A stretch of DNA of 64,000 nucleotides, from assembly GCA_030698695.1 (NCBI GenBank), contig JAUYMR010000042.1, positions 3,174-67,173 of the forward strand. Reading direction: 5' to 3'. The stretch is from a bacterium (lineage in GTDB: Bacteria > Patescibacteriota > Minisyncoccia > UBA6257 > WO2-44-18). Positions 9,951-55,645 of this stretch are shown here, one piece after another. The notes beneath the pieces were generated by a model, which worked only from the letters and a program-made list of their open reading frames with translations, was not told where the DNA came from and did no database searches. The first letter of the stretch is position 1. The number at the start of each line of letters is the position of its first letter. A program made the position numbers and the translations under genes.

Positions 9951-10025
9951 TGGTGCCAGGGGCGAGGATCGAACTCGCGACCTGACGCTTATGAAACGTC
10001 TGCTCTGCCACTGAGCTACCCTGGC
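9951..10025 (-). tRNA. tRNA-Met/Ile2 (anticodon CAT), CCA encoded
   Basis: rc = GCCAGGGTAGCTCAGTGGCAGAGCAGACGTTTCATAAGCGTCAGGTCGCGAGTTCGATCCTCGCCCCTGGCACCA. It folds as a cloverleaf with anticodon loop TTCATAA and a GTTCGAT T-loop. Confidence 0.85.
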
Positions 10026-10158: not shown

Positions 10159-10530
10159 TTATGATAAAAATTCTTTGACTCGTTTGCTGAGCTCTTCCAA
10201 TGAACAATTGGCCTTGACTATGTAGGCATCGACTTTAAGACCCATGCTTTCTAACGATTCCTCTTGGCCGGAAAGATTGGTAAAAACAAAAACCGGCGTA
10301 TTAACAAACGGAGACTGTGGGTCGCGTATTTTCTTCAACACATCAGTACCCGGCATTTCTGGTAAAATTATATCCAACAATATGAGGTCTGGCTTAAACT
10401 GACTAAGCTTATCTACTGCTTGCAAACCGTCAGTCGCGATATCAATTTCATAACCATCACTACGCAGGCTATCCGCGATAGCGTTAGCTAATATCTTTTC
10501 ATCTTCTACTACTAAAATTTTCTTGCCCAT
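10159..10530 (-). CDS. stand-alone response-regulator receiver (CheY-like, no output domain)
   Basis: MGKKILVVEDEKILA..D..PDLILLDIILPEM.G..VLKKIR.. carries the conserved D..D..K receiver residues in only 124 aa. Confidence 0.88.
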   Translation of the reverse strand: MGKKILVVEDEKILANAIADSLRSDGYEIDIATDGLQAVDKLSQFKPDLILLDIILPEMPGTDVLKKIRDPQSPFVNTPVFVFTNLSGQEESLESMGLKVDAYIVKANCSLEELSKRVKEFLS

Positions 10531-10605
10531 AAATTTATTCTTTTTAGCAAATATATTTTTAAAAAATGACCACTTGTTCATATTATAACACAAAATATTA
10601 ATTTG

Positions 10606-12750
10606 TTATTCTATTGGCAAAGCAAAATAAAAATCGGTTCCCTTGTCTCGACCTTCAGAATAAAACCATATATCTCCGCCATGCGCTCTAATAAAAGATC
10701 TGGCGATAAACATGCCCAACCCCAAACCATCTGGCAAAGTGGTTCTGGCTTTATCTCCTCGGAAAAACTGATCAAAAATGTGCCCCTTCTCATCTCCATC
10801 AATACCAATACCCTGATCACTCACGCTGATTACGACTCTGTTCTTATCTCCAACTTGATCCAAACTTGAAGTAATTTTAATCTCACCGTCCTTATGAGAA
10901 TAGGCTATGGCATTACTTATAATAACCTTTAAAATTCTTTTCAACTTGTCATAATCCGCCGGCACAATGACTGCCCTACTCTTAAAATCTCGGCTAATAA
11001 CCAAACGCTTCGGGAAAATAATGTCTTTAAAATCCTTAATAATTTCATTAACTATTTCCGATAAATCACAATCAGTCTTTTTGACCAACAATTTCCTGTC
11101 ATAAATATCTAAAGCCACCAAAATATCGTCCAATTGGCCGCCCAAAAAAACCGTACTCTGATAGGCGTTATCAACCATTTTCCGCCTATCTGCTTCCGAT
11201 AGCTTGTTTTGAGATAAAGATTCCAAAGACCATCTCAAAGCCGAAACTGGTGTGCGTAGTTGATGAGAAACTACGTTTATAAATTTTGATTTAGATTCGG
11301 ATAATTCTTTAACATCCGAATAAAGTTTGGCATTCTGGATCGCAAAACCAGCCTCGGCGGTAAATATATTCAATAAATTCATATCCTGATGAAAATAACC
11401 CTCACCGGATAATTTACTGCCAAGAACCAATATGGCAATCTCAGCGTCTTCGGCCATAATTGGGATCACTACGTCAATATCGTGAGACCTCATAACTTGT
11501 TTAATCGGCCCCTCTTCTAGGTAGTCAAAAGCTAATTCTATGGGGCGGGGGTCTCTGACCGTGGAGAGAGTTGAAAAATTGTTTGTTGATTGAAGGTGTA
11601 ACAAACTCTCCAATTCTTTGGCTGTGTCGTCCCCAAAACCAAATCCCATATCAAATTGGTTGATGATTTTATGATCATCAACCAACAACCAAGCTCCCTT
11701 GGCAATACCCATTTGTTCGGTTAAAAGCTTTAATGTTTCATTAGTCATTTTCTCCAAATCAACTGTACGACTAATGATGTTATTAAGCCGCGTCAGTAAT
11801 TCATCGGGGTCATAACGAACAGCATGAAATATTCTATTGGTTAGCTGTCTAAAAAAACTCTCTAAGGGACGGAAAGTAGTCAAAATCAATAAGGCCAATG
11901 CTATTGATATCGCCGATACGGTAATATCAAACTGCAATCCCAAAACCTCTTTGATAACAGCCAGTAAAACGAAGGCGTAAGCTACGGTTAAAACGGCCAT
12001 AGTCAATAAAAATGATGCCGCCCGTATTATAAAAATTCTAATATCAAAAAGACGATGCTTGATAATGGCGTAAGCGGTAAAAGCTACGAAGGGAAAGATG
12101 AAAATAGCGGCGAACGGCAAATAAGAAGGGTTATTAAAGACAACTGGCAAGAAAAAATTAGTCATCATAACGGCCAAAAACATGGCGGCAACTCCGGTGG
12201 TAACAAAAATAAATTTTCTACGATTATTTTTATCGGCCTTAAAAGTTTTAACCACTAAAATCACCAATCCAACAATGGCATAGCCAACAGTAGTCATGCC
12301 GAATACGGGCATCAACGGACCATTGACGGCTGACAATATAATGCCGTCGGGAGATAAAAACCCCACCTCTTTTAAAACCAATGGCGTCAACGTCAAAATA
12401 GAAATAATTGATGTCCAAATACTCAATATAATCACATAAATTTTTGATAATTTTATACGCTGATCGGGGAATGACAAAGCGAATAGAAAAAAAGAAAAGG
12501 TATATAAAGTGGCCGTAAACAGCGTCAAGCGCAGAACAGAAAAAGCATAGAAAACCGGCAATGGCCGGGAGCTAAGATAGTTAGCTATAGACCAAAAAGC
12601 TATAAAAAATGTAAATAGAAAGAACGTTATGTGGGTGGCGCTCCGACGCAATGATAAAAACACAATAAAACCCAAAATCACTGTCGCCATAATAGCCAAC
12701 CCGACAACAGAAAAATCCCAATTTATTAATAGAGGGTAGGTGGCTTGCAT
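10606..12750 (-). CDS. sensor histidine kinase with large (~10 TM) N-terminal membrane sensor domain
   Basis: Multi-TM N-terminal half, a GAF-like middle, the HisKA H-box 'VSHQLRTPVSALRWSLESL', and HATPase_c motifs (DQGIGI.., GLGLGM). Confidence 0.9.
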   Translation of the reverse strand: MQATYPLLINWDFSVVGLAIMATVILGFIVFLSLRRSATHITFFLFTFFIAFWSIANYLSSRPLPVFYAFSVLRLTLFTATLYTFSFFLFALSFPDQRIKLSKIYVIILSIWTSIISILTLTPLVLKEVGFLSPDGIILSAVNGPLMPVFGMTTVGYAIVGLVILVVKTFKADKNNRRKFIFVTTGVAAMFLAVMMTNFFLPVVFNNPSYLPFAAIFIFPFVAFTAYAIIKHRLFDIRIFIIRAASFLLTMAVLTVAYAFVLLAVIKEVLGLQFDITVSAISIALALLILTTFRPLESFFRQLTNRIFHAVRYDPDELLTRLNNIISRTVDLEKMTNETLKLLTEQMGIAKGAWLLVDDHKIINQFDMGFGFGDDTAKELESLLHLQSTNNFSTLSTVRDPRPIELAFDYLEEGPIKQVMRSHDIDVVIPIMAEDAEIAILVLGSKLSGEGYFHQDMNLLNIFTAEAGFAIQNAKLYSDVKELSESKSKFINVVSHQLRTPVSALRWSLESLSQNKLSEADRRKMVDNAYQSTVFLGGQLDDILVALDIYDRKLLVKKTDCDLSEIVNEIIKDFKDIIFPKRLVISRDFKSRAVIVPADYDKLKRILKVIISNAIAYSHKDGEIKITSSLDQVGDKNRVVISVSDQGIGIDGDEKGHIFDQFFRGDKARTTLPDGLGLGMFIARSFIRAHGGDIWFYSEGRDKGTDFYFALPIE

Positions 12751-12752
12751 AT

Positions 12753-13535
12753 TTAATTATAACTGGCCATTTTTTTAAAAAACTCCATTTTGTGTTCTAG
12801 AACACACCTTTCTGCCTCGGGATGCCAAAAACGATTCTTCATAAATCCTATAAAATCTTTACCGCCGAAAAAATTATGCTTAAGAGGCTTCAATCCGTTG
12901 TTAAAATCTTCACAATTCAGACACTTAGTCTCTACGTTTTTATATTTTTCAGAGATATCAATAGCATATTCTAATGTGCCTTCGGGCACTATTTCGTCAT
13001 CATCACAAATAAATAATAGGGTACGAATATTGGGTGGGATGTGTTCTAATTTAACAGCCGGCCGAACTACGCCCTGCGGATAGAAAATAAGGGGCGATAT
13101 GCCAAACAGGCCGACTATATGATTTTTAAGATTTCTCACGCTATGTTTTTTAATTTCTTCATCTGACGGCTCCTGAACCACTCTTCCAGCGAAAACGAAT
13201 CCCCCACTCATACCGCCAAGCACAATCTTGCTCTTTCCTCGACTCAAACACTCTTTAATGCCTTCTTCTATCTTATCAAAAACCCTACTCTCAGGAAAGG
13301 AATTGGCAAATTTAATCCTCCTCTGATAAGCCCCGGGCAACACCGTAAGTTTTAAGACTTTCCAAAAAGTCTTCTTCTCATAAGAATCGTCAAAAATATC
13401 AACACCGACAACAAACGCGCCCTCTTTAACAATGGGGTCAAAAACATCCATCATTGACTTGGTCAACCCTATGATGGGACTTATAAAAACAATTCCCAGA
13501 TTATTTAAATTATTATTGTTTTCCGATGCCAGCAT
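12753..13535 (-). CDS. alpha/beta-hydrolase-like protein (GxSxG 'GGMSGG')
   Basis: 260 aa with a putative nucleophile elbow LGGMSGGFVFAG. It overlaps the nitroreductase gene by 23 nt. Fold assignment is tentative. Confidence 0.4.
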   Translation of the reverse strand: MLASENNNNLNNLGIVFISPIIGLTKSMMDVFDPIVKEGAFVVGVDIFDDSYEKKTFWKVLKLTVLPGAYQRRIKFANSFPESRVFDKIEEGIKECLSRGKSKIVLGGMSGGFVFAGRVVQEPSDEEIKKHSVRNLKNHIVGLFGISPLIFYPQGVVRPAVKLEHIPPNIRTLLFICDDDEIVPEGTLEYAIDISEKYKNVETKCLNCEDFNNGLKPLKHNFFGGKDFIGFMKNRFWHPEAERCVLEHKMEFFKKMASYN

Positions 13536-14619
13536 GATGATTTTTATTATTTAATTTAGATATCAGTTTTTCTTCTACCGAAATACGCGAACTAAAAGAG
13601 CTGGCAGGTCCGGCCTCGCCAAGCCTAAACATCATAGCAATAGTTTCGTTACCCACATCAAATGTTCTTTTTATATCGTCATAAGCGGACTTCATCAAGC
13701 TTATATGATATGAAGATAATAAATTTTCGGTTTTTTCAGAGATTATGCGTTGAGCAAAAAACAATGTGGCGGTTACCGGCTGTAAAACCAAACCGAACGA
13801 AGTAGCTTTCAACCACACTCTTTGCATCAATCTACCGGCATTTACATAATCTCTGCTATTGTTGCCGCTCATTGTTATAATTCCCATCGCGGACCCACTG
13901 GCATAAAGCTTAGAATCTTCTTTAGCAATAAATCTCGGCAAACCCAAATGAATGGCTAACTTCATAAGCGGCCAATTCTTAGCTAGTCTAAACATTATTT
14001 TTTGAACAGGATTAAACTCCATCGCATTGATATACAATCCATGACGCAATCTTTTTTCTCTTGATTCATTCCAAACCACATCTTTGAACAATAGGCCATG
14101 AAGTTTTTTATTCTCTAAAATAACTATTTCGGCTAACGCCCCAGCTTTGCCGGCTATTTGTTTTTCTTTTTCGGATTCTAATAACTTAATCCCACCCGAT
14201 TCCGACTCTTGAGATGCCCTCAAAATACCGCTCCTTTGCTCCGCCGTTAACGGAATATTTTTATATGGCCTGCGATTAGTGTGGCGTTTTTTAATAAATT
14301 CAAAAAGAGCATCTTGTCGGACGCTGTCTGACTTTGAAAAAAACACCTCTGCCACTAAATTTTTATCAGTAGCTGACGGAAATAAATCAACTTTTGAAGA
14401 ATAGCCAAAATGCGAAGCGGCAATGACCATATTTTCAATCAATCCACCATGAGCAATATAAGAACCGCTTTGTTCAAAATTTAAATAAGGATTATCTTTA
14501 TCCGGTAAATTATATATCAAAAGACTATCTCCACCTATCTGAAATGCCCATGGCTGGCTATTATCTCCCGATGGAGCCCAAATGGCATAATCTAAAATGT
14601 CTTTAATATAACCCGACAT
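13513..14619 (-). CDS. nitroreductase-superfamily protein, two-lobed/tandem (368 aa; SagB/McbC-like size class)
   Basis: The N-terminal 'DYAIWAPSGDNSQPWAF' is the nitroreductase APS..N.QPW signature, and a second NTR-like half follows (..RRPYKNIPLTAEQ..). Confidence 0.7.
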   Translation of the reverse strand: MSGYIKDILDYAIWAPSGDNSQPWAFQIGGDSLLIYNLPDKDNPYLNFEQSGSYIAHGGLIENMVIAASHFGYSSKVDLFPSATDKNLVAEVFFSKSDSVRQDALFEFIKKRHTNRRPYKNIPLTAEQRSGILRASQESESGGIKLLESEKEKQIAGKAGALAEIVILENKKLHGLLFKDVVWNESREKRLRHGLYINAMEFNPVQKIMFRLAKNWPLMKLAIHLGLPRFIAKEDSKLYASGSAMGIITMSGNNSRDYVNAGRLMQRVWLKATSFGLVLQPVTATLFFAQRIISEKTENLLSSYHISLMKSAYDDIKRTFDVGNETIAMMFRLGEAGPASSFSSRISVEEKLISKLNNKNHHAGIGKQ

Positions 14620-14664: not shown

Positions 14665-16197
14665 CTATTTTTTTACCCATTTTTGCTTACCGCCAGAATG
14701 GAAATATAGCGGATGTTCATAGGGCCAAAGAGTTAATCTAGGCAACATCCTAATTTTCGTTTGGTTATAACTCTCTCTGTATTCAGAATTTTCTTTCAGC
14801 AGATGGTTAATAATGATTGATCTAATCTTATCGCTAAGCTGTTTGGATTTTTTAATTTTCCGCCGTAATTCAATATTGATTTTAAAAACTTGATTTTGTC
14901 CTTTGTCTCTATCAACTACCATAGTGAATTTGCCCGTAATATTTTTTGATAAACTGCTAGCGCCCAAAGCCCTCCTTATTGTTTCCGGATATATATTAAA
15001 ACCGTTTAGAGTAACCACAAAATCACTTCTCTCATAAACAAAAACAAACGGCAATCTTTGAATTGTATCTTTGATGCCGGCCTTCTTTATTTCATTTTCC
15101 AAATTGATGCCCGCATTGCGGCAATGCTGAAGCATCTCATCAAAACCAATCACGCCGCCATTATCTTTCAAATCATAACGCGCCAAAGGCAATCCGCTAT
15201 AAGCCGAACATACTAAGCCGCCGTTTATTTCTTCAAAAAAGAACATTTCGGGAAAATATTGAGTTAATGTAGGTAATTTATAAATATCTCCAAAAATTGT
15301 TTTATAAAGCTTCTTGTTTTTGATAGCTAATCTTCTTATTAAAATTGACAATGGAGTCTCATAAGACATCGTTCCTAAATCTACCGTACCATAATGATTT
15401 AGCGTATCACGATAGATATTTTTAAGACCGGCTTGATGGGCTATATAATCTCTAAACTTTTCACTAAAACCTTCGGCTGAAAAGATAAACTTCATATTGT
15501 AATTTCGCCACTTTATTCCCTCGGCCAAGCCTTCATCCAATAAATCTTTAACGAATGGCGGATAACCGCCAATAATTATCTGATTGTAATAAGGAGCTAA
15601 TTTCCTAAATGCCTTTAAAATTTCTGACTTGTTCAATCCGGGATTTATAATGCTCAAAGCATAATCACCGCGACTAACCAAATGTTTAAGAGCTTGATAA
15701 GTAAACAAACCGCCGATCCACGCGCCCATAGCGAAACCGTTTATATATAAAGTTTTATGGCGATCAATTTTAAAATTACTATTTAGATATATTTCAGCAG
15801 TGGTTGCGTACTGCATATCTTGATCATCTTGGCGTGGGAAATAAAAAGGTTCTCCCGTAGATCCCGATGTGACTGAATACACCCAATGCTTTTCAGACAA
15901 TTCGCCACCCCAACATAAATCAACTAACGGGTATTTTTTAAGATATTCGCCCTTATCAAGGGTGGGCAACAATTTAAAATCAGCCATATTTTTAATATCG
16001 CCCATTTTAATGCCGTTGGACTTTAAAAATCTTTTATAGGCTGGCACCTCTTTAACCATTTCTCCGAAAAGACGCAAAGCCATCTGTTCTCCTCTCTTAA
16101 TCCAATAAACAGCCGGCTTGATTTTTAAATCTCTGATAATATTACGAATCTTCTTATTCATACATATCGTATCTTTATATGATAACAAAATACTCAC
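14665..16197 (-). CDS. PaaK-like adenylate-forming enzyme (phenylacetate-CoA ligase / coenzyme F390 synthetase family)
   Basis: The AMP-binding P-loop 'VTSGSTGEPFYFP' and 510-aa PaaK/CapK-like architecture. Confidence 0.75.
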   Translation of the reverse strand: MSILLSYKDTICMNKKIRNIIRDLKIKPAVYWIKRGEQMALRLFGEMVKEVPAYKRFLKSNGIKMGDIKNMADFKLLPTLDKGEYLKKYPLVDLCWGGELSEKHWVYSVTSGSTGEPFYFPRQDDQDMQYATTAEIYLNSNFKIDRHKTLYINGFAMGAWIGGLFTYQALKHLVSRGDYALSIINPGLNKSEILKAFRKLAPYYNQIIIGGYPPFVKDLLDEGLAEGIKWRNYNMKFIFSAEGFSEKFRDYIAHQAGLKNIYRDTLNHYGTVDLGTMSYETPLSILIRRLAIKNKKLYKTIFGDIYKLPTLTQYFPEMFFFEEINGGLVCSAYSGLPLARYDLKDNGGVIGFDEMLQHCRNAGINLENEIKKAGIKDTIQRLPFVFVYERSDFVVTLNGFNIYPETIRRALGASSLSKNITGKFTMVVDRDKGQNQVFKINIELRRKIKKSKQLSDKIRSIIINHLLKENSEYRESYNQTKIRMLPRLTLWPYEHPLYFHSGGKQKWVKK

Positions 16198-16265: not shown

Positions 16266-17315
16266 CTAATAAGCATCAACCTTGGCCCTGGCCATTGAGT
16301 CGGCAATAAAATCCGTAGATTTACGCATTTTAGAACTTTTAACAAAAATATCGCCGAGAGTCTTTTTTATCATTTTGACCCGGTTGATTATTAGCTTCTT
16401 ATTAATTTTATTTTCATATTCACTGACTACGCTTATTAATCCGCCAGCATTTACTACATAATCTGGCGCATATAAAATACCGGAGCGGTACAACAACTCC
16501 CCCGCCTTATCGTTAGCTAATTGATTGTTGGCGCCGCCTAAAACAATCTGACATCTCAATTCTTTAATAGTTTTGTTATTTAGTATGCCGCTCATGGCGC
16601 ATGGTGAATAAACGTCTACCCTTTGCTCGTGTATCTTAGAGGGTGAAATGGCAATTACTTTGGGGAATCTCTTTTCTATTGATTTTACTTTGTCTTTATC
16701 AATATCCGAAACAAATATTTTTTGATTGGAATTATCGCTATAAATCAATTTCAAAAATTCAGAACCAACCTTTCCAAGGCCGGCTATGGCAAAATTAGTT
16801 TCAGTCACATCTTTTTCGCCGAAAACCTCTCTTAAGGCCGCCTCCAAACCATAAAATAATCCCAAGCCAGTAAACTCAGTCGGATCTATTTTGGAACCAA
16901 CCATAAAAGGACTGGTGCGGCTCATCGTTTTAACGTCTGCCTGAGTCAAGCCGATGTCCGAACCGGTAATAAAAAGACCTTCTAATAGATTTACCCTTTC
17001 GGCATAAGCTTTCAATAAAGCGCTTGATTTGGGAACTGATCCAGATATAACAGCTTTAGCGCCTCCATATGGCAATCCCGCCATAGCCGCTTTATAAGAC
17101 ATTAATTTAGACAATCTCAAAACATCTTTAATAGCCTCCAATTGAGAACTATATGGCCATAAACGAGTGGCGCCAAAAGATGGAAATTTCTTGTTCTTCC
17201 GATGAATACCTATAAAACCCTTCAGGCCAATATTAGAATCATTCAAAAAGACCACTTTATGATGGTTGTCATATTCAACTAATTTTTCTACATCAAAACT
17301 GTGTCTAAAAGACAT
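16266..17315 (-). CDS. Glu/Leu/Phe/Val-type amino-acid dehydrogenase (Leu/Phe dehydrogenase-like)
   Basis: 'GIHRKN..GATRLWPY' and the catalytic-Lys motif 'AMAGLPYGGAKAVI' are followed by a C-terminal Rossmann fold (AIAGLGKVG). Confidence 0.85.
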   Translation of the reverse strand: MSFRHSFDVEKLVEYDNHHKVVFLNDSNIGLKGFIGIHRKNKKFPSFGATRLWPYSSQLEAIKDVLRLSKLMSYKAAMAGLPYGGAKAVISGSVPKSSALLKAYAERVNLLEGLFITGSDIGLTQADVKTMSRTSPFMVGSKIDPTEFTGLGLFYGLEAALREVFGEKDVTETNFAIAGLGKVGSEFLKLIYSDNSNQKIFVSDIDKDKVKSIEKRFPKVIAISPSKIHEQRVDVYSPCAMSGILNNKTIKELRCQIVLGGANNQLANDKAGELLYRSGILYAPDYVVNAGGLISVVSEYENKINKKLIINRVKMIKKTLGDIFVKSSKMRKSTDFIADSMARAKVDAY

Positions 17316-17322
17316 TGTTAGA

Positions 17323-18405
17323 TTAAAGATGCGGGTTGATGTGGATTCGCGCTACCAGCTGCTTGTCTTTGCTTAAAGCAATCTTCTTGAGGGCATAGAC
17401 CGCGTACACGCCCCCCAACATAGCAGCACTACCCAATTGAGGCCAAGAAACTAATTTTTTACTAATAACTTTTTTCACCGATTTTATCATTTCGGGATCC
17501 ACCAAATGTATTCCTCCGACAATATCTTTCATTATAATACTACCAACCATCTGCATTTTATTTATCTTAGGATCGCCGAATTCTCTAAGTTTTCTATTCC
17601 AATAGCTAAGCGGACGATGAAATATTTTCTTATAGCCCAAATCATAACGCTCAATATGCAAAACTATGCCATTACCGTTATCGGTGACCATTATAACTGG
17701 AACTTTATATTTTAAGGCTAATTTCCTAAGATTTATTTTCATAGGTAAATTATCAATCTCATCAACTAGACAATTTAATTTTTTTTGTGCTAATAGCGGC
17801 TCTAAATTATCTTCCGTTATACCTTTGGGCATAATCCTGACCTTAGCGAACGGATTATCCTCATAGATGCGGCGCGCGGCCAAAACGCATTTATTTAAGC
17901 CAATTTGATGAACTCCGCCAAAAATACGATTAAGATTGGTATTGTCCAAATTATCAAAATCAGCGATAGTTATTTCTCGCGCGATGCCGGCTTGCGTCGC
18001 GACAAAAGCGATATTACTACCAACGCTCATGCCGAATACAGCGACCTTGTAATTATATAACTTCTTTTGTTCCGCCGCGGTAATAAGATCTTGATTACGA
18101 TTTGTCTTTAATCTGAAATAGTCATCGGCGCGAACAGTTTTAACTAGATGATAATTCCACGGATAATACACCCAAACAAAAGATTTTTCTTTTTTAGTTT
18201 TGTATTTTTTAAAATCTTGCGTCTTATAAACAACTTCTTTATCTGCGCCGATGTATTTATGATTATCTATAAAAAACAACTCATTGATCTGGCGATTAAA
18301 AGAATCTACCACAATAACGGCATTATTGCCCCTCTTCAATCTATTAGCTTTGTCGTTGCTTAAAATTAGCGATCTATATTCTGAAGCTTCAAATTTCATA
18401 ATCAT
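17323..18405 (-). CDS. ThiF/MoeB/HesA-family E1-like adenylyltransferase with ~110-aa N-terminal extension
   Basis: Rossmann motif 'VAVFGMSVGSNIAFVATQAGI..ITIADFDNLDNTNLNRI'. There are no CxxC zinc motifs. An N-terminal ~110-aa domain is of unknown function. Confidence 0.75.
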   Translation of the reverse strand: MIMKFEASEYRSLILSNDKANRLKRGNNAVIVVDSFNRQINELFFIDNHKYIGADKEVVYKTQDFKKYKTKKEKSFVWVYYPWNYHLVKTVRADDYFRLKTNRNQDLITAAEQKKLYNYKVAVFGMSVGSNIAFVATQAGIAREITIADFDNLDNTNLNRIFGGVHQIGLNKCVLAARRIYEDNPFAKVRIMPKGITEDNLEPLLAQKKLNCLVDEIDNLPMKINLRKLALKYKVPVIMVTDNGNGIVLHIERYDLGYKKIFHRPLSYWNRKLREFGDPKINKMQMVGSIIMKDIVGGIHLVDPEMIKSVKKVISKKLVSWPQLGSAAMLGGVYAVYALKKIALSKDKQLVARIHINPHL

Positions 18406-18418
18406 ATCATTTAAAAAA

Positions 18419-19897
18419 TTAATCTTGTTTGGGGACGGGCAGACTCAGCCAGAATGTAACCCCATTGCCATCTTTTATCGGCGATTCAAACCATATTTTG
18501 CCTTGATTGGCCTCCATGGCCAGCTTAGCTATAAAAAGACCTAGGCCGCTACCGCGCGGTCTCAATTTTTGAGCCAATGGCCCACGATAGAATTTATTAA
18601 ATATTTTATCGTGCTCAATTTCGGGTATGCCCGGACCATCATTGCGTATGCCTATAAGATATTCATCGTTCCTCTTGCTAACACTAACGGCTACTGCCGA
18701 ACCTTCGGGAGAATAAGCAATCGCATTATCTAAAATATTCTCAAACGCCTCACTAAATAGCGCCCTATCTATAGACAATGTTTTTATGTCATCGGTTATA
18801 GATAACTCCACTCTAACATTACGAGATTTCGCGACTGGCTCAAATAAGGTCATCGTCTCCCTAATTAACTCACTAATATCAGTAGGCTGTCGCTTTGATG
18901 CTACGGAACCGGCTTCCAATCTAGAAATGCTCAACAAATCACCCACTAAAGAGATTAATCTTTCGTTTGATTCATATATGTTGGCCAGCTTTTCTTCTTG
19001 TTTATCAGAAAAATGATCGTCTTTGCGCAAAGACTCTATTAACCATTTCATAGACGATAAAGGTGTACGCAACTGATGCGAAGCAATAGAAATAAATTCT
19101 GTCTTAGATTTGTTCATCTCTTCTAACTCTCTAACGTTGCGAGTCAGCGCGTCTCCCATGCGGCTTACAGATTTATATAAACCACCTATTTCGCCATCGG
19201 CTAGCCGTTTGGGAATTATTTCCACCCTACCTTCGGCTATATTATTAGCCAAACTGGACACCTCTTTAATCGGTTCCAAAACACTTCTGTAAGCGTAGAC
19301 CATAAAGGCCACTCCTCCCAAAGTAACCAATAACCAAGCGGCAGAAAAAATAGGATAAAACAAAACCGCATTATTTTCAAAACTCTCTATCTGATCGGCA
19401 CTAACTTGGCGCAATATTACCAATAAAATATCGCTATTGACGCTAATATCATTTAGTAAATTTATTGATAATGGATTGGCGAGATAATCATTGACAGACT
19501 GCTTAAGCGCTAAGAATGATTCATATTCTAGCTGGGATAAAACTAATAAATTATCGCTAAGATATCGTTTATTGTCCGGCAAAAACAATCCATAATTATT
19601 CTCATAGTCCGCTATAGATGTATTCAGTCTGGCTTTCTGCTCCTTGATTAGATTTTCATATTCTGATTGAGTATATAAATTAGCGCTTCTCGCCAAAATG
19701 TCCAATCTTAAAGAAGTCTCCCGAATATCAGCCGCTGTCCTTCTTCCATTGGTAACAACATTTTCCTGTTGACTAATATAATTGACGGCATCGTTATAGA
19801 TATAAACGCTAAAAATGGCGCTTAAAAAAACCGGGATAGTGGCCAATATCACAAATCTCAAACCAAACTTTTCCGAAAGAGGCATTCTTGATTTCAT
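18419..19897 (-). CDS. sensor histidine kinase (2 TM, periplasmic sensor, HAMP-like linker, HisKA, HATPase_c)
   Basis: H-box 'IASHQLRTPLSSMKWLIESL' with N/G1/G2 boxes (NILDNAIAYSP, RNDGPGIP, GSGLGL). Confidence 0.9.
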   Translation of the reverse strand: MKSRMPLSEKFGLRFVILATIPVFLSAIFSVYIYNDAVNYISQQENVVTNGRRTAADIRETSLRLDILARSANLYTQSEYENLIKEQKARLNTSIADYENNYGLFLPDNKRYLSDNLLVLSQLEYESFLALKQSVNDYLANPLSINLLNDISVNSDILLVILRQVSADQIESFENNAVLFYPIFSAAWLLVTLGGVAFMVYAYRSVLEPIKEVSSLANNIAEGRVEIIPKRLADGEIGGLYKSVSRMGDALTRNVRELEEMNKSKTEFISIASHQLRTPLSSMKWLIESLRKDDHFSDKQEEKLANIYESNERLISLVGDLLSISRLEAGSVASKRQPTDISELIRETMTLFEPVAKSRNVRVELSITDDIKTLSIDRALFSEAFENILDNAIAYSPEGSAVAVSVSKRNDEYLIGIRNDGPGIPEIEHDKIFNKFYRGPLAQKLRPRGSGLGLFIAKLAMEANQGKIWFESPIKDGNGVTFWLSLPVPKQD

Positions 19898-20040: not shown

Positions 20041-20067
20041 TATACTCGCAATGATTTCCTAATTAGT

Positions 20068-20137
20068 TGCGGGGGTGGGAGTTGAACCCACTGCCTCCTG
20101 GTTATGAGCCAGACGAGCTACCGTTGCTCTACCCCGC
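20068..20137 (-). tRNA. tRNA-Met/Ile2 (anticodon CAT), no encoded CCA
   Basis: rc = GCGGGGTAGAGCAACGGTAGCTCGTCTGGCTCATAACCAGGAGGCAGTGGGTTCAACTCCCACCCCCGCA, with anticodon loop CTCATAA and T-arm GTGGG-TTCAACT-CCCAC. Confidence 0.8.
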
Positions 20138-20190
20138 GTGAATAGTGTATCACAATTGTTGCCAAATGCAAAAATTGGTAACCTTAAGCC

Positions 20191-29720: not shown

Positions 29721-30929
29721 TTAAAACGATTGTATCAAATTATAAATAGGCAATAGCACCGAGGCAAACAATACACCCACCAAAACTCCCATAACAACCA
29801 TTAGGGTGGGCTGGATCAATTCCACTAGATTAGCTACTAAATCATTAACCTCTCGGGTATAAAATATAGCCACGCGATCCAGCATCTCATCCAATTTACC
29901 AGTCTTTTCACCTACGGCCACCATCTGCCCTACCAAAACAGGAAAATATTTCTCGTTAGTCTCAATTGCTTCCGAAACCAATCTTCCACTACGAACTTTT
30001 TCGGCCAAATCATGTATCACCTCGCGATAAATAACGTTATCAATAGTATGTCCGCTAATCTCAATTGCTTGAGCAACCGGAATACCTCCCTTTATCAAAA
30101 TAGACAACCCTTCCGAAAATCTGCTTATGTAGACTTTTTTAAATAGATCTCCAAAAACAGGAGCTCTAATAATCAACTGCCCATAAACCATGCGCCCCTC
30201 TTGGCTGCGCAAATAATCAGCAACAATTACCAGCAAAATAGCGACCGCGATAATAACACCCAACCACCAAGCAGCGATAAAATTACCGACATCTAAAAGA
30301 ATTTGAGTGAAAAATGGCAATTGCACATTGGATTCCGCGAAAATCGGACTTAACTGCGGAAAAACTACCCCGACTAAAATACCGGCCACCACCAAAAATA
30401 ATCCCAAAACAAAAGCTGGATAAATTAAAGCGTTGCGAACCTTGGCTATAAGAGCCATTTCTTTTTCTAAATAATCTGCCAAAAATTCCATCACTTCATC
30501 TATGCGCCCCGTAACCTCTGCCGATCTAACTAAATTTATATAAAATTCTGAGAAGATGGCGCTATGTTTTTCCAGGGCCTGCGATAACGACAATCCAGCA
30601 TCAACATCAGACCACATTTCAAAAATTGCCTCTTTCAAAGTCGGATTTTTAGACTGTAAATACAATCCTTTTAGCGCTTCATCTAACGGCAAATCTGCTT
30701 TAAGCATCGCGGAAAATTGGCGCGTGAAAATCACCAAATCCACCCTTTTGGCGCGTTGCATAAAATTAAGCATTGAGGCGTAGAACTTGGGCACTCTTAC
30801 TTCGGCTAAACTTAAAATATACAGGCTGTGTCCCTGTAAAATATCTAGAGCAGTATTACGATTAATTGCCTCAACGTAACCCGCTTGCAACTCCCCCTCT
30901 TTAGTTCTGGCCTTATATTTAAACTTCAT
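29721..30929 (-). CDS. pilC: type IV pilus platform protein PilC (GspF family)
   Basis: 402 aa with a duplicated T2SSF domain and three TM helices. Confidence 0.88.
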   Translation of the reverse strand: MKFKYKARTKEGELQAGYVEAINRNTALDILQGHSLYILSLAEVRVPKFYASMLNFMQRAKRVDLVIFTRQFSAMLKADLPLDEALKGLYLQSKNPTLKEAIFEMWSDVDAGLSLSQALEKHSAIFSEFYINLVRSAEVTGRIDEVMEFLADYLEKEMALIAKVRNALIYPAFVLGLFLVVAGILVGVVFPQLSPIFAESNVQLPFFTQILLDVGNFIAAWWLGVIIAVAILLVIVADYLRSQEGRMVYGQLIIRAPVFGDLFKKVYISRFSEGLSILIKGGIPVAQAIEISGHTIDNVIYREVIHDLAEKVRSGRLVSEAIETNEKYFPVLVGQMVAVGEKTGKLDEMLDRVAIFYTREVNDLVANLVELIQPTLMVVMGVLVGVLFASVLLPIYNLIQSF

Positions 30930-30966
30930 CGTAGGGCATTCACTAATAATGCGTTCGCGATTACTC

Positions 30967-32037
30967 CTATCTTTCTAATAATACTTTTAACTCTGATGGA
31001 TTTAAAGAATATAATTCCGCGTTTTCCAAAGAAATCATTTTTCTTTTGACTAAATCAACCAGTGAACGATTTAGACTAACCATACCTTCTTGTGAGCTAG
31101 TTTCAATCACTAAATCAATCTGATGAACTTTTCTTTCTCTTATTAAATTTCTAATAGCGGAGTTCATAATCATAACTTCGCAAGCCGGCACGCGACCACC
31201 TCCGATTTTAGGTATTAACCTTTCAGAGACAATAGCCACCAAAGTAGATGCTAGCTGTGAAGCGGCTTGGTTTTGTTGTTCAGCGGGAAAACTATCAATA
31301 ATACGATCAATGGTCTGCGCGGCTGAATTGGTATGCAGAGTAGAAAATACCAAGTGGCCGGTTTCGGCGGCAGTCATAGCGGCGGCTACGGATTCATGCC
31401 CACGCATTTCACCAACCATAATAACATCGGGGTCTTGACGCAAAACAGATGTCAAAGCTTTGTTAAAACTTAGCGCGTCTATTTTAATTTCTCGTTGTGA
31501 AACAATGGATTTATCTTGAGTAAATAAATATTCTATGGGATCCTCAACGGTTATTATATGATCCAGACGAGTATGATTAATCTCATCAACCATCGCGGCA
31601 GATGTCGTTGATTTGCCGTGACCAGCCGGACCGACTATCAACACAAAACCTTGAGCTAACTTAGTAAAATCGTGAAGTATGGGCGGCAAATTAAGATCGT
31701 CTAAAGTCGGCGGTTTGGCTCTCACTAATCTCATGGCGGCGGCCAAAAAACCTCGTTGATGGAAAACATTAACCCTAAAACGCGCCTTGTTATCAAAAGA
31801 GTAAGAAAAATCTATCTCTTTGTCTCGCAATACCTCGTCTTTTTGGTCTGATGTTAACAAAGCCGTAATCAAGCCCTCCACTGCTTCTGGTGTTAATACC
31901 ACCTCTTCATTCAGTGGGATTAAAGACCCGTCAATTCTTAAAGTTGGCTTAGTGCCTACTCCCAAATGCAAATCCGACGCGCCACGACTAGCGGCCGCCA
32001 ACAACAGTTCATTAAGTTTTTGCTGGTAGTTATTCAT
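30967..32037 (-). CDS. pilT: twitching-motility/retraction ATPase PilT
   Basis: Walker A 'GPAGHGKSTT', Asp box, His box and the PilT size of 356 aa. Confidence 0.85.
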   Translation of the reverse strand: MNNYQQKLNELLLAAASRGASDLHLGVGTKPTLRIDGSLIPLNEEVVLTPEAVEGLITALLTSDQKDEVLRDKEIDFSYSFDNKARFRVNVFHQRGFLAAAMRLVRAKPPTLDDLNLPPILHDFTKLAQGFVLIVGPAGHGKSTTSAAMVDEINHTRLDHIITVEDPIEYLFTQDKSIVSQREIKIDALSFNKALTSVLRQDPDVIMVGEMRGHESVAAAMTAAETGHLVFSTLHTNSAAQTIDRIIDSFPAEQQNQAASQLASTLVAIVSERLIPKIGGGRVPACEVMIMNSAIRNLIRERKVHQIDLVIETSSQEGMVSLNRSLVDLVKRKMISLENAELYSLNPSELKVLLER

Positions 32038-32099
32038 AGAGTTTAGGGATTAGGAATTTTTAAACTATACCTCAAACTCCGCACCCTATTATTATTGTA

Positions 32100-33818
32100 T
32101 CACGCTTCTTCGGTATCTCTTAACACTTCCTCCATACTAACCCTGCCATCAAGACTCTTAAGAATTCCATCTTGTCTTAAAGTTACCATTCCCTGTCTTT
32201 TAGATTCATCCCAAAGTTTATTCTCGGTTACGCCACTGCTAATAATATCTGAAAGTTGCGGCGTCATTTTAAAGGCCTCAAAAACAGCCAAACGTCCGAC
32301 AATGCCTTTTTGATTGCAAGTGGCGCATCCGCCAGCGTGATAGATTTTATAAGGCGCTTTATATTTAGATCTAATACTTTCCGGCATTTCAGATAATTCT
32401 TTGTTAATAATCTCTGTCATTGCTTGTGAGGCCACGGTGGATTTTTTGCAATCAGGGCACAATTCAGAAACTAAGCGTTGAGCGCCCATAAGATTAAGCG
32501 ATGATGGCAATAAAAATGGTTGTATGCCCAGATCAATTAATCTTGGCACGGCTGTAACTGCATTGTTGGTGTGTAATGTTGTTAAAACAATATGACCGGT
32601 TAGGGCCGCATGCACGGCTAGAGTTGCGGTTTCGCTGTCTCTTATTTCGCCGACCATAATTACATCCGGATCCTGACGCAATATCTCTCTCAAACCACTG
32701 GCAAAATCGTAGCCAATCTCTGGCTTAATTTGTGATTGATTCACTCCTTCAATGGAATATTCCACCGGATCCTCCAAGCTAACAATATTAACGCCATCAT
32801 TATTAAGTATTTGCATCAACGAATAAAGAGTAGTGGTTTTACCAGAGCCCGTCGGACCAGTAATTAGTACCATGCCGTAAGGCTTAGCAATGGCCTCTTT
32901 CAATAAATCTGCGTTCCTGTTCAAAAAACCCAAATCATCTAAACTGCGTAGTCCAACTTTGGGGTCAAGTACGCGCAAAGCCAACTTCTCGCCAAAAGGC
33001 GTTGGAAAACTGGACACGCGAAAATCAATATCTCTATCTAAAATATTCGTACGAAATCGTCCATCTTGAGGAATGCGAGTCTCATCAATTTTTAAATTGG
33101 AAAGTATCTTAACGCGAGAAATAATAGGTTGATGCAATTCTATTGGCAACGATAATACTTCTTGCAGAACTCCATTTTTTCTAAATCTAACTCGCAAACG
33201 ATTGCGTTGCGGCTCTAAATGGATATCTGAAGCATCGGCGCCGACTGCGTCCTTTAAAATAGACGACACTATCTTGATAACTGGCGCTTCTTGAGCTACG
33301 GCCATCTCCGATTCCATTGTTATGCCCCGCTGACCGCTTAACGGCTTAATGGCTCTCAAAGCTGCCTGCACCTCGTCTTTATTGGCCCCACCATATTGTT
33401 TGAGGACAGCCATAACGTCTTTAGGCGTAACCAAATAAACTCCCAAATTGATTTTTAAATCCTTACCCACAAAACGCAAGGCCTCTTTTACACTGGCGTC
33501 TTCCGGATTGACAGCGCCGACTATCAACATATCACTTTTCTTTTCCAGCGGAATTATTTTGTATCTATTAGCCGCGTCTGTAGGTATTAATTTTAATAGT
33601 TCCGGCGATAATTGATCGGGATCAACCTTTTTATAAGGTATTTTTAATAGCTGGCTTTTTATTTTAGCGACCTCTTCTTCGGCCACTAATTGACGATCAT
33701 AAACCAATTGCTCTGCCGATCTTTTAGTAGATCCAACATCGCCTAACAACCTATCGGCCGCATCCGAAGTGATCAATTTTGCATCAATTAAAGCTTTTAT
33801 AAGTTCTTTGTCTTTCAT
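32100..33818 (-). CDS. pilB: type IV pilus assembly ATPase PilB (GspE family)
   Basis: An N-terminal GSPII-like domain, Walker A 'GPTGSGKTTT' and a tetra-Cys (CPDC..C..CN) in 572 aa. Confidence 0.9.
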   Translation of the reverse strand: MKDKELIKALIDAKLITSDAADRLLGDVGSTKRSAEQLVYDRQLVAEEEVAKIKSQLLKIPYKKVDPDQLSPELLKLIPTDAANRYKIIPLEKKSDMLIVGAVNPEDASVKEALRFVGKDLKINLGVYLVTPKDVMAVLKQYGGANKDEVQAALRAIKPLSGQRGITMESEMAVAQEAPVIKIVSSILKDAVGADASDIHLEPQRNRLRVRFRKNGVLQEVLSLPIELHQPIISRVKILSNLKIDETRIPQDGRFRTNILDRDIDFRVSSFPTPFGEKLALRVLDPKVGLRSLDDLGFLNRNADLLKEAIAKPYGMVLITGPTGSGKTTTLYSLMQILNNDGVNIVSLEDPVEYSIEGVNQSQIKPEIGYDFASGLREILRQDPDVIMVGEIRDSETATLAVHAALTGHIVLTTLHTNNAVTAVPRLIDLGIQPFLLPSSLNLMGAQRLVSELCPDCKKSTVASQAMTEIINKELSEMPESIRSKYKAPYKIYHAGGCATCNQKGIVGRLAVFEAFKMTPQLSDIISSGVTENKLWDESKRQGMVTLRQDGILKSLDGRVSMEEVLRDTEEA

Positions 33819-37267: not shown

Positions 37268-37297
37268 TCTAAGGCCTTGCGATGGCCTTAGATTATG
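37263..37297. terminator. 14-bp perfect stem-loop spanning both convergent stop codons
   Basis: cataatctaaggcc-ttgcgat-ggccttagattatg. There is no U-tract on either side. Confidence 0.45.
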
Positions 37298-40200
37298 GGG
37301 TTGGCTCTTCAGCTGGTGCTGGCTCCTCGGGGGCTAGCGCCGGTTCTTCTGCTGGTGCTGGCTCTTCTGCTGGGGCCTCCTCTACGGCTGACTCTTCAGC
37401 TGGTGCTGGCTCTTCAGTTGACTCCGGCTGAGACTGAATCAATGACGAGCAAACACCAGAAGTGGTCTCAGCCAATCCATTGCGAACAAATAGACAATAT
37501 GGCTGATTAGTTTCGGTGTCATATAAAGTTATTCCCGTAGGAGCTGAAGATGAGCCAACTTCCAATTTCCCAACTATTAATTCTTTAATAGTCACCAAGG
37601 CGTCTCTCAACCAATTAGCCACTATATTGATAATCTGTGCTACCAGACCATCACCTTCTAAATTAAGACTGCTATTCTCTTGATTGACTGGAGATTCTAA
37701 CGAAACCGGCATCCAATAAGTAAGATTAACGAACATCAAGACCTTGCTATGATTTTCTTCGGTGGGGCCATCAAAATTGCTGATAGCATAACCCAAGATG
37801 CGGCCCGCTTGATTGGCTTTTTTAGCGACTCCGGCTTCCGAAGAAATAGTCAACGGGTCCCCTATAACGATAGGTCCATTTTCTAGATTCACTTTAACCG
37901 GAACACGACCAGAAAGAGCTAGCGGGGCTTTGTCGGGATCAGGACTATAAAAACCACTAAGAGCTTTGATGTGACTACCCTCAAACACGATGGCCGGGGA
38001 AGTTGAAATAACGCCTGCCAATTTTTCTGGCCCGGTAGCTTTTGATATATGAGCCGGACTGGAGCCGTCAAACATAACCACATCGCCACCAGTTAATGCT
38101 TCACTAGTTGGATAAAGCTCGGCAAGATCGTTTAACACACAATCACCTAAACTATTAGTATCACGGCATTGATCGTTAGCGGCTATAGAGATTGCCGTAT
38201 TGCCCTCATCGCTACCGCTAGCATTAATTAATAAAGCTGGAAGAGTATTGTTGTTGGTGTTGTCTATGGACAAAGTCCCTCCCGGCGAAGTAGTTCCAAT
38301 GCCGATTAAGCCGTTATCCAAAACCGTCATTATGGTCGTTGAGGCGTTATTAACTAATTGCAATAATTGACCGGTGCCCGTGCCTGCTCCCCAAACACTA
38401 AATTGAGAATAAGGAGTAGTGGTGCCGACAGCTACACGATTGCCAAAAGTGGCAGACGTCACATTTCCCAAACTGGTGCTGGTAGCCACGACACTGATAG
38501 GCCCAGCGCTCAACAATCCGTTAGTGCCTATATTGACGCCACCGCCAACCTGCAAACGACCGCCGATTTCAACATCTTTATATATGCGCGCCTCACCAGC
38601 TTCCAAAGAATGAATATTGGCGGCCACGGTCTCTATACCGGAAATATCTCTAACTTCTAGAACTCTAGTACCGGAGCCACCGGTCTGGGGACCTATGAAA
38701 AGACGCCTGCCGGAAATATCAAAAGATTCCGGATTAGGATTGGTAGTTGAGGCGCTACCTATTAACACTGGACTCGCTGGATCAAAGACGTCAAAAATAT
38801 GCATACTGGCTATGTCATCAAATGCCTTTCCAGCAATAACATATGCATAACGACCACGAACTTTTATGCCGGCTGGTCTTCTAAAAGCATTTGCCAATTG
38901 ACTGACTTTGGCCGGACTACTGGTAGAAATATCAAATATTTCTAACAATGGGTCATCGCCGCCGTCAGAAGTAACATAGGCATAATTTCCAACAACTTCC
39001 AAGTCATTATTAGTGACGGCATTCATATTGATGGGGGCACTACCGATAACCGCGGGCGTGCTGGTGGAAATATCCACCTTAGCCAAAGCGTTATTACCGC
39101 CGTCAAGAACGTATAAATAACGACCCAGAACTTTAGCGCCGCGCATATTGTTGCTAAAATCCATAGTGGACACAAGATTGGGAGCGATGGGATTGGTGAT
39201 GTCCCAGACAGCCAATGAAGGACTGTTGCCGAAAATATATGCCCTGCCACCAACCACAGTAACACCATTGCCACCGCCAGTATTGGTTGAGCTTATAATA
39301 GCCGGTCTCAAAGGATCAGATATATCAATTATCACCAAAGAAGTATTTATCTGATCCATAACATAGGCATAGCGACCAGCAATGGTTATAGACACCGGAT
39401 TGGGACCGCCTCCCGTAAGAGCAACTGTAGCAACTTGAGCCGGAGAAGTGGTAGAAATATCAAAGACCAGAATATTGCCGCCATTGGAATTAGTTAAATA
39501 AGCATATTTACCAGAAATAGCCATTTCTTGTGATTGAACACCATCGTCCAAAGTGGCATAGCCCAATAAACTCGGGGTAGAAGTTGCCGGATTGAATATG
39601 TTGCCCCAAACAACTAACCTATCCTTAACATTAGTAGCAACGGTTGACGTACCTATCAATAATTGACCGTTATTATTTATAGTGAGAGCAGGAATCGTAT
39701 TGAGTCCACCGCCAACCGAAGTTGGCGTAACAGTACTACCAGAAGTCCAAGTGCCCAAAGACGATCCTTTAGTAAAATCATCTGGGTCACGAGCAAATAT
39801 TCCCAAAGTGTTGTCATCTATCATCCCTAAATTGACCAAGTCCGTATGGTCATAATAATCGCTGTAGCCAGCTGAATCTATATTCCTCAAAATACGATAA
39901 CCTTCAACATCTGGATCGTCAGACGCATTCCACGTCATCGCAACCCAAAAATCAACGTCACATTTGGAACTATCAGTCTCTATATAATCAGAAGAATAGA
40001 TAACAGTTCCACTAACGGTTTTAAAAGAGTAAATTCGATAATCCAAACACCCAGAAACATAATCACCATCCCCGCCTATATTATTAGCAGTTAATGGTGA
40101 TCCTGGACCAGATATAGTCGACGCCGCTGTCGTTGAGGCAATCATACTTCCAAATTGCAAACTTCCGCTTGAAGTAGTAAGGGCAAGATTACCAGATGAA

Positions 40201-43442: not shown

Positions 43443-43548
43443 TAACTAGCGCGTATTAAAATGATTATTTGCTTTCTATGCTTCTGCTTATAATTATAGC
43501 AAACTTAAGGCTTTTAGATCATTCATCTTGTGTGGATAACTTGATCGC

Positions 43549-55081: not shown

Positions 55082-55645
55082 ATGTCTCTAAGTCAAAAAG
55101 AAGAAAAATCGCTTATACTCAAAATTAAAAATGGAGATCAAGGAGCCTTGTCGCTACTTTGGGACAATTTAACGCCTAAACTTTTTGGTTATCTCATAAA
55201 CACCACTCGCAACAAAACTTTAGCTGAGGATTTATTGCAAAATACTTGGCTCAAAGCTATTAACGCCCTGCCAGGTTTTGAACCGAGAAATATCAGTATC
55301 GCCGCCTGGCTGTTTGCTATCGCCAAAAATGAATGTCGCATGCATTGGAGAAAATCAGGAAGAGAAACCTTGTTTGATCCCGCGAAAGACGAAGAAACGC
55401 CAATAAAACACGATGAAGTTAATAATGTCGGTAATCTGGAAAATAAAATATTAATAGAACAAATTCTTGGGCTCCTCTCTGAAGACGATCGCGAAATACT
55501 CCGCCTACGCTATATTGCCGATCTGCCATTAAACAAAATAGCCAATGTACTAAAAATTAACTTTGTGGCGGTACGCGTTCGTATGCACAGAGCCCTAGGT
55601 CGAGCTCGCGGAATAATAGATAAAAATCATTATGAACAAATATAA
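55082..55645 (+). CDS. ECF-type RNA polymerase sigma factor (sigma-70 family)
   Basis: Region 2 (..LLQNTWLKAI..) and region 4 (..EILRLRYIADLPLNKIANVL..), overlapping the downstream gene by 14 nt. Confidence 0.85.
   Translation: MSLSQKEEKSLILKIKNGDQGALSLLWDNLTPKLFGYLINTTRNKTLAEDLLQNTWLKAINALPGFEPRNISIAAWLFAIAKNECRMHWRKSGRETLFDPAKDEETPIKHDEVNNVGNLENKILIEQILGLLSEDDREILRLRYIADLPLNKIANVLKINFVAVRVRMHRALGRARGIIDKNHYEQI

Follow-up and report, generated by a model that had tools for sequence, protein, structure and literature searches.

Recognition of ThiF-like enzymes with small-molecule substrates dates only from 2021, with OxzB, and the group was extended between 2023 and 2025 with TyzB and TrzS. 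OxzB of Pseudoalteromonas rubra was the first oxazolone synthetase and is the founding member; a 2025 review counts it as the sole ThiF-like enzyme for which a small-molecule substrate has been validated, and oxazolone synthesis as still the sole small-molecule case (PMC12596934). TrzS (Rv1355c) carries out an ATP-dependent cyclization followed by an O2-dependent desaturation, by which N-acyl-tryptophan is converted to N-acyl tryptazolone, and the Asp of its ThiF motif (D217 in the enzyme of Mycobacterium smegmatis) is essential (PMC12856293). In Mycobacterium tuberculosis, the same chemistry is performed on N-acyl-tyrosine by two proteins, the ThiF-type TyzB (Rv2338c) and the flavin-dependent oxidoreductase (FDO) TyzC (Rv2337c), and the pairing of ThiF with an FDO is the defining feature of oxazolone synthesis (PMC10404671). 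Here, we describe a gene for a ThiF/E1-like protein at positions 17323-18405 (minus strand) of a 64,000-nucleotide stretch of DNA, hereafter the window, from a Patescibacteria (candidate phyla radiation, CPR) genome (assembly GCA_030698695.1, contig JAUYMR010000042.1, positions 3,174 to 67,173). We think it probable that this protein is the ATP-dependent cyclodehydratase of a split, ligase-dependent oxazolone synthetase of the TrzS/Rv1355c type.

The gene itself is explained by the family characterized between 2021 and 2025. Neither ligases nor CPR taxa are mentioned in PMC12856293 and PMC10404671, and a literature search on oxazolone and Patescibacteria found only unrelated papers, mostly on the gut microbiome and on colitis or allergy models. 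For oxazolones, a role in signalling has been proposed.

Relationship to the Rv1355c/TrzS family

The open reading frame (ORF) starts with ATG and encodes 360 residues, identical to a public protein named 'ThiF family adenylyltransferase' (P0001), which was deposited with a 69-kb contig of a metagenome-assembled genome. Among curated families, its best-scoring match was NF005901 ('Rv1355c family', NCBIfam; 722 profile positions), at 218.2 bits, with residues 20-348 aligned to profile positions 27-326. The product of a second ORF in the same co-directional operon, an FDO of the nitroreductase superfamily and a putative desaturase (13513-14619, minus strand, 2.7 kb downstream), matched NF005901 as well, with 177.2 bits for residues 5-352 against profile positions 377-718. 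The 2 proteins thus match the 2 halves of the profile, and the window carries as 2 pieces what is a single fused protein in other genomes. Here, they are encoded by 2 ORFs, with the genes for a dehydrogenase and a ligase between them. Fused homologs pass the curated cut-off of 476 bits, which was set for the fused protein (P0193, 776 bits; P0199, 786 bits; P0158, 534 bits; P0153, 485 bits).

Direct comparison extended this relationship beyond the adenylation core. A BLASTP alignment to the 743-residue fusion P0158 showed 35% identity and was unbroken over residues 23-357, including matching segments in the N-terminal domain (VVDSFNRQINELFFIDN against IFDTYLDQLKELFLLRN, and VWVYYPWNYHLV against SWIYYPWLGQVV). 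An exhaustive, profile-free search returned 3189 relatives, 699 of them at E ≤ 1e-30, which occur in two forms: standalone proteins of approximately 340-400 residues and fused proteins of approximately 700-780 residues. Among the 150 representatives listed, alignments mostly begin around residue 20-35 of the query; a minority begin around residue 56-77 or later, or are fragments. Judging from these alignments, homology to the Rv1355c/TrzS family runs through the whole ThiF half, N-terminal domain included.

The adenylation core and a helical carboxyl-terminal region take up residues 93-360 (17326-18129, minus strand), of which residues 105-240 are covered by the Pfam ThiF match. An AlphaFold2 (AF2) model of the full-length protein (pLDDT 90.1, pTM 0.88) places the start of the E1/ThiF fold at a helix of residues 93-102, and alignments to ThiF-family chains in the PDB begin at query residues 91-95. 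A reading of the sequence alone (the sequence-only reading) had set the start of the core near residue 115, a position that roughly suits the first Rossmann strand (residues 121-124 in the model) but is too late for the fold itself. The strand and glycine loop 'VAVFGMSVGSN' occupy residues 121-131. In this loop, the residues of G125-x-S127-x-G129 are invariant, with Ser at the position where canonical ThiF has Gly. Residues G125, S127, G129, D149, D151, N157, N159, R160, K172, D218, K223, and R227, which include the N157-L-N-R160 motif, show 96-100% conservation across the aligned family. The same range holds for the family-specific motifs E252-R253-x-D255 and P322-Q323-L324, except for E252 and L324 (both 92%). 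The assignment of the core motifs rests in addition on alignment to ThiF-type chains in the PDB. The adenylation machinery is intact, and D218 is probably equivalent to the essential D217 of TrzS, going by its position in the motif rather than by direct alignment.

Comparison with ThiF/MoeB and TcdA

The only cysteines of the protein are C173 and C212. CxxC pairs are absent, as the sequence-only reading had noted, and the region that holds the zinc site in ThiF and MoeB is helical in the AF2 model. The lack of CxxC pairs fits an enzyme that binds no protein of the ThiS/MoaD type. It is therefore extremely improbable that this is a classical ThiF/MoeB sulfur-carrier adenylyltransferase with an unusual N-terminus. 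The best ThiF model reached 60.7 bits (cut-off 159) and the MoeB model 46.3 bits (cut-off 449), far below equivalog cut-offs that range from 152 to 449 bits, and neither a ThiS/MoaD-like (beta-grasp) ORF nor genes for a rhodanese or for thiamine or molybdenum cofactor (Moco) biosynthesis were found nearby. TyzB, formerly named 'MoeW', was shown to be no Moco enzyme (PMC10404671). The earlier argument against a classical sulfur-carrier function is upheld by these results.

A zinc-free group to be considered is that of TcdA/CsdL. An enzyme of this kind would cyclize a carboxylate carried by a tRNA nucleoside (t6A to ct6A) or by another macromolecule. TcdA lacks the zinc cysteines and catalyzes an ATP-driven intramolecular cyclodehydration that yields an oxazolone-type ring (PMC12596934), which is the chemistry we propose below for the ThiF-like protein. 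However, TcdA acts on tRNA, and has neither a counterpart of the N-terminal domain nor an FDO partner. Its model (NF011696) scored 46.3 bits against a cut-off of 304, while the Rv1355c model scored 218 bits, so that the grouping with TcdA/CsdL raised by the sequence-only reading was not borne out. TcdA matches in the PDB start at query residue 121, and a conserved operon and natural fusions with an FDO, a ligase, and an amino acid dehydrogenase would make no sense for a tRNA enzyme. We consider a TcdA-like function very unlikely.

A conserved N-terminal domain

The ThiF fold begins at the helix of residues 93-102, before the first Rossmann strand, which leaves a genuinely extra part of approximately 90 residues, structured over residues 11-92 (18130-18375, minus strand). 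The extension had previously been put at approximately 110 residues without a counterpart in minimal ThiF proteins; its length was thus overestimated, while its existence as a separate, folded part is confirmed. In the AF2 model, the domain consists of strands at residues 13-15, 31-34, 76-81, and 86-91 and helices at residues 17-26, 36-47, 56-59, and 63-72. When residues 1-96 were folded alone, the same secondary structure was obtained (pLDDT 90.6). The best 120 of 1135 close homologs cover 90-100% of the protein, including the extension. In an alignment of 144 diverse family representatives, the gap fraction was at most 0.11 over most of residues 11-100, and D34, E42, L43, W78, P82, and W83 were conserved at 84-94%. 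The domain is kept by 103 representatives of the standalone form and 40 of the fused form. It is therefore a real domain, and neither a mis-called start nor an annotation artifact. It marks the ThiF clade of the Rv1355c type, in fused TrzS-type and standalone proteins alike.

The sequence-only reading had further compared this extension to the peptide clamps and RiPP recognition elements (RREs) that bind precursors of ribosomally synthesized and posttranslationally modified peptides (RiPPs). MccB, PaaA, GrcB, and IndF indeed carry N-terminal RREs (PMC12596934). Like the ThiF-like protein, these enzymes have an E1-like core behind an extra N-terminal domain, and they do not take part in sulfur-carrier chemistry. 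If the resemblance were more than architectural, the domain would recruit a ribosomal precursor peptide, of which the core would adenylate a carboxylate. The domain gave no support for this. A Foldseek search of 350,542 chains with the domain yielded a best match of only E 1.9 and TM-score 0.30, with no structural similarity detected to the RREs of these enzymes, and a Pfam search returned nothing even at E ≤ 10. The order of its elements when folded alone is β-α-β-α-α-α-β-β, whereas that of an RRE is β-β-β-α-α-α. The aligned lengths of the structural matches to MccB (218 residues) and PaaA (232) were similar to those of MoeB (213) and AclA (232), both of which lack the N-terminal domain, consistent with a match to the core alone.

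Nor was a substrate for such an enzyme apparent, as neither a precursor-peptide gene nor a small ThiS-like ORF was found in the operon. The ORFs of at least 20 residues that occur in the spacer upstream either overlap a tRNA-Met gene or are short, unsupported frames, and the gaps between the genes of the operon, at most 68 nucleotides, leave no room for a precursor-peptide gene. The results thus do not support reading the domain as an RRE of the PqqD-like kind or as a peptide clamp, and we regard a RiPP-type E1-like enzyme as highly unlikely. With regard to the more general proposal of a peptide or small-molecule substrate, the small molecule is the most likely of the two, since the best-matching family cyclizes N-acyl amino acids (PMC12856293, PMC10404671).

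The domain may help to form or cap a small-molecule substrate site, or may provide an interface for dimerization or for a partner protein. In ligase-ThiF fusions, it is retained and lies between the 2 enzymes. The analysis draws attention to a conserved domain of approximately 80 residues without a structural relative in the PDB, within a newly characterized enzyme family.

Genes of the operon

The ThiF gene is part of a co-directional array on the minus strand with intergenic gaps of -23 to 68 nucleotides. Adjacent to it lies a gene for a 349-residue amino acid dehydrogenase of the Leu/Trp/Phe type (ELFV family; 16266-17315), with Pfam matches to ELFV_dehydrog_N and ELFV_dehydrog. Its closest relatives in the PDB are a leucine dehydrogenase (3vpx, E 1.3e-64) and a tryptophan dehydrogenase (5b37, E 1.9e-64), and it scored 282 bits against the ScyB tryptophan dehydrogenase model, under the cut-off of 600. 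The next gene (14665-16197) encodes an adenylate-forming ligase similar to PaaK and F390 synthetase, assigned by weak PaaK matches and by its motifs. All adenylation motifs are kept: the SGSxGxP loop, YG, RYxxxD, and the carboxyl-terminal lysine, K504. The ORF spans 510 residues from a GTG codon; the deposited protein (P0271) has 498 residues and begins at an ATG 12 codons further in (MNKKIRN...), where translation probably starts.

The FDO described above follows the ligase. It scored 195 bits against NF011424, a model of ThiF-FDO fusions, and 147.5 bits against the Acg family, of which a PDB structure (2ymv) was matched at E 8.8e-5. Overlapping the end of its gene by 23 nucleotides is an ORF for a 260-residue protein with a GMSGG (GxSxG-like) motif (12753-13535) and without any match in Pfam, NCBIfam, or the PDB. 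Homologs of this protein between the FDO gene and that of the seven-transmembrane kinase were found only at 2 other loci (L019 and L035), and it is therefore an accessory that is not generally conserved.

Three genes of the operon encode signalling proteins. A sensor histidine kinase of the HAMP type (18419-19897; Pfam HAMP, HisKA, and HATPase_c) lies directly upstream of the ThiF gene, separated by 13 nucleotides. At the other end are a seven-transmembrane (7TM) sensor histidine kinase with a GAF domain (10606-12750; Pfam HisKA_7TM, GAF_2, HisKA, and HATPase_c) and a receiver-only response regulator of 144 residues (10159-10593), in which Response_reg (residues 26-139) is the sole Pfam match. 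As the regulator lacks an output domain, any signalling output would not consist of direct DNA binding by this protein. A scan of the operon for promoters and terminators gave counts no higher than those of shuffled controls.

Two tRNA-Met genes (9951-10025 and 20066-20138, both on the minus strand) flank this cluster of 8 genes almost exactly. We considered whether the cluster is a genomic island delimited by a duplicated tRNA-Met gene and rejected this, as the flanking tRNAs differ (77% identity) and nothing points to duplication of an attachment site.

Conservation of the gene cassette

When a single genome of each GTDB species was scanned, 57 loci were obtained. Patescibacteria (Paceibacteria, and the Nomura-, Magasanik-, Woese-, Doudna-, Harrison-, and Kaiserbacteria) account for nearly all of them, and 2 are from Gordonia. 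Partner genes were counted at the 32 loci with at least 5 kb on both sides of the ThiF gene. The ligase was found within 9 kb at all 32 of these, the dehydrogenase adjoined ThiF at 25, and the FDO was present at 25. The 7TM kinase, matched by its N-terminal region, was found at 26 of the 32, and also at L003 and L061. Throughout, these partners were encoded on the same strand as ThiF, in several gene orders, the main ones being ThiF-dehydrogenase-ligase-FDO-kinase (13 loci) and dehydrogenase-ligase-ThiF-FDO-kinase (5 loci).

Confirming a functional link within this cassette, natural fusions join ThiF to several of its partners. Ligase and ThiF are fused in this order in P0198 and P0331 and in the reverse order in P0216, and a triple fusion of dehydrogenase, ligase, and ThiF was found in P0236. 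In P0137, ThiF is fused to an enzyme of the 4-methylideneimidazole-5-one (MIO) type, which scored 547 bits against a tyrosine 2,3-aminomutase model and 542 bits against a histidine ammonia-lyase model. This fusion is followed by a ligase, an FDO, and a 7TM kinase (L061), so that in one variant of the cassette an MIO lyase or aminomutase takes the place of the dehydrogenase.

Proposed pathway

Taken together, these results allow a route to be proposed. The dehydrogenase, or the MIO enzyme in its place, would convert an amino acid to a 2-oxo acid or to an unsaturated or beta-amino acid. The ligase would activate this acid with ATP and couple it to an amino acid, yielding an N-acyl amino acid as the substrate for ThiF; both steps are suggested by synteny and by the fusions. 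Together, these enzymes would replace the acyl-CoA-dependent acyltransferases OxzA, TyzA, and TrzA. By homology, and with precedent for the chemistry in its relatives, the ThiF-like protein would then adenylate the alpha-carboxylate of this N-acyl amino acid, after which attack by the amide oxygen would close a 5(4H)-oxazolone ring. The FDO, encoded by its own gene, would desaturate the bond between C-alpha and C-beta, again as in the relatives. The 7TM kinase might sense the product or regulate the pathway, though this is speculative. A ligase in place of an acyl-CoA-dependent acyltransferase would suit organisms in which acyl-CoA metabolism is limited.

Several observations weigh against this proposal. 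Both halves score below the NF005901 cut-off (395 bits in sum against 476), and identity to bona fide members is only approximately 35%, making a different substrate or product quite possible. Named relatives of the ligase, all of them weakly scoring, comprise only CoA ligases and F390 synthetase, and an amide rather than a CoA thioester is no more than its putative product. No acyltransferase of the OxzA/TyzA/TrzA type was detected in the operon, where Pfam and NCBIfam profiles matched no acyltransferase family and no direct search with the OxzA or TyzA sequences was made. Any role for the N-terminal domain is conjectural.

The cassette itself has exceptions as well. At 2 loci (L001, 9001-12173, and L002), a ThiF homolog with 56% identity and with the N-terminal domain occurs without ligase, dehydrogenase, or FDO, beside a 261-residue protein resembling S9-type and alpha/beta hydrolases, an oxidoreductase of the type II NADH dehydrogenase (NDH-2) type, and YceI; the cassette is thus not obligatory for every member of the clade. 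The Gordonia loci (L053, 8349-10861, from Gordonia alkanivorans, and L055) are ligase-ThiF pairs without an adjacent FDO, located near an Hsp70-like gene; their ThiF is standalone and has retained the 'YPW' hairpin at its N-terminus. They also show that the partnership of ligase and ThiF is not confined to CPR bacteria.

Given the failed NF005901 score, the lack of fusion, and the lack of an acyltransferase partner, the protein should not be seen as an ortholog of TrzS, but as a variant of the TrzS-like kind. The same clade and cassette could also lead to another product. A different nucleophile would yield a lactam, an imide, another heterocycle, or an activated ester that is passed to an acceptor, or the ligase might make a CoA thioester that is used elsewhere. 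The low identity to characterized oxazolone enzymes and the sub-cut-off scores speak for this, as do the loci without an FDO and the variety of nucleophiles that ThiF-like enzymes are known to employ. The replacement of the acyltransferase by a ligase and a dehydrogenase or MIO enzyme, for which tyrosine 2,3-aminomutase is the best model, points the same way, and the substrate may accordingly be a conjugate of a 2-oxo acid or a beta-amino acid. On the other hand, the FDO is co-conserved at 25 of the 32 loci, and is nearer to the FDO domains of ThiF-FDO fusions (195 and 177 bits) than to Acg (147.5 bits). We therefore treat another product as a serious contender, but an unlikely one, and retain the split oxazolone synthetase as the reading of choice.

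Implications

The TrzS-type cyclase clade reaches well past the Actinobacteria into many lineages of Patescibacteria, where the cyclase is paired with an ATP-dependent ligase and an amino acid-deaminating enzyme instead of an acyl-CoA acyltransferase. If the proposed pathway is correct, it would open a second way into oxazolones or related heterocycles, one independent of CoA, and would be a rare example of specialized small-molecule biosynthesis in CPR bacteria, with a link between product and sensor that can be tested. Worth following up are the CPR cassette as such, the exchange of acyltransferase for ligase, the linkage to the kinase, and the orphan fold of the N-terminal domain.

A bolder view is that CPR bacteria, whose biosynthetic capacity is otherwise minimal, widely carry a self-contained, acyl-CoA-independent pathway, made up of a dehydrogenase or MIO enzyme, an amide-forming PaaK-like ligase, a TrzS-type cyclase, and a flavin desaturase. 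Its oxazolone-type product would be sensed by the 7TM histidine kinase, forming a module for a diffusible, autoinducer-like signal, and the N-terminal domain, as a novel fold, would serve to capture the small-molecule substrate or to dock the ligase. We put this forward as a speculation that is improbable as a whole.

Other genes in the window

Genes in the window lie mostly on the minus strand, and the GC content ranges from 36% to 47%. Over positions 1-64000, GC skew was negative in all 2-kb bins except 40001-42000 (+0.07), and near zero in 42001-44000. An ORF of 2049 residues (37293-43442, minus strand) contains LVIVD repeats and a beta-propeller signature, and probably encodes a giant surface protein. 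Genes for a type IV pilus or type II secretion system, typical of CPR bacteria, are located at 29721-33818 on the minus strand, and include a T2SSE ATPase with MshEN (32100-33818) and a T2SSF platform protein (29721-30929). A 410-residue ORF on the plus strand (55632-56864) matched no Pfam family at E ≤ 1e-5.

Comparison with known oxazolone synthetases

The nearest solved structure is that of AclA from Tenacibaculum discolor (PDB 9EGB and 9EGC), a protein of 264 residues that lacks the N-terminal domain and is matched from query residue 94 onwards; a literature search on AclA yielded nothing relevant. In the ThiF-FDO fusions described by NF011424, the ThiF core likewise stands at the very N-terminus, with query residues 93-239 aligned to profile positions 18-165. 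As the core of this profile begins around position 18, the N-terminal domain is not universal among ThiF-FDO enzymes.

OxzB, together with OxzA, resembles the system in the window in that ThiF-like and nitroreductase-family enzymes are paired on an N-acyl amino acid. Unlike the proteins encoded here, OxzB is a fused, di-domain protein, and it depends on the acyl-CoA acyltransferase OxzA. In its arrangement, the operon is more like that of TyzB and TyzC, in which a standalone cyclase of the ThiF type and a standalone FDO desaturase are encoded in one operon (PMC10404671). TyzB, however, has 318 residues, approximately 40 fewer than the ThiF-like protein, and could hold at most part of the N-terminal domain. 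TyzA is an acyl-CoA-dependent acyltransferase with a fold like that of acyl-homoserine lactone (AHL) synthases, to which nothing in the operon of the window is similar.

TrzS of mycobacteria and Rhodococcus differs from the ThiF-like protein in several respects. In the window, 2 other genes separate that of ThiF from that of the FDO, the partners are a PaaK-like ligase and an ELFV dehydrogenase instead of the N-acyltransferase TrzA, and the host is a Patescibacteria metagenome-assembled genome rather than an actinobacterium. At the level of the protein, the likeness is far-reaching: the N-terminal domain is shared, the ATP-binding motifs and the Asp of the adenylation site appear conserved, and both lack the zinc-site architecture of ThiF and MoeB.

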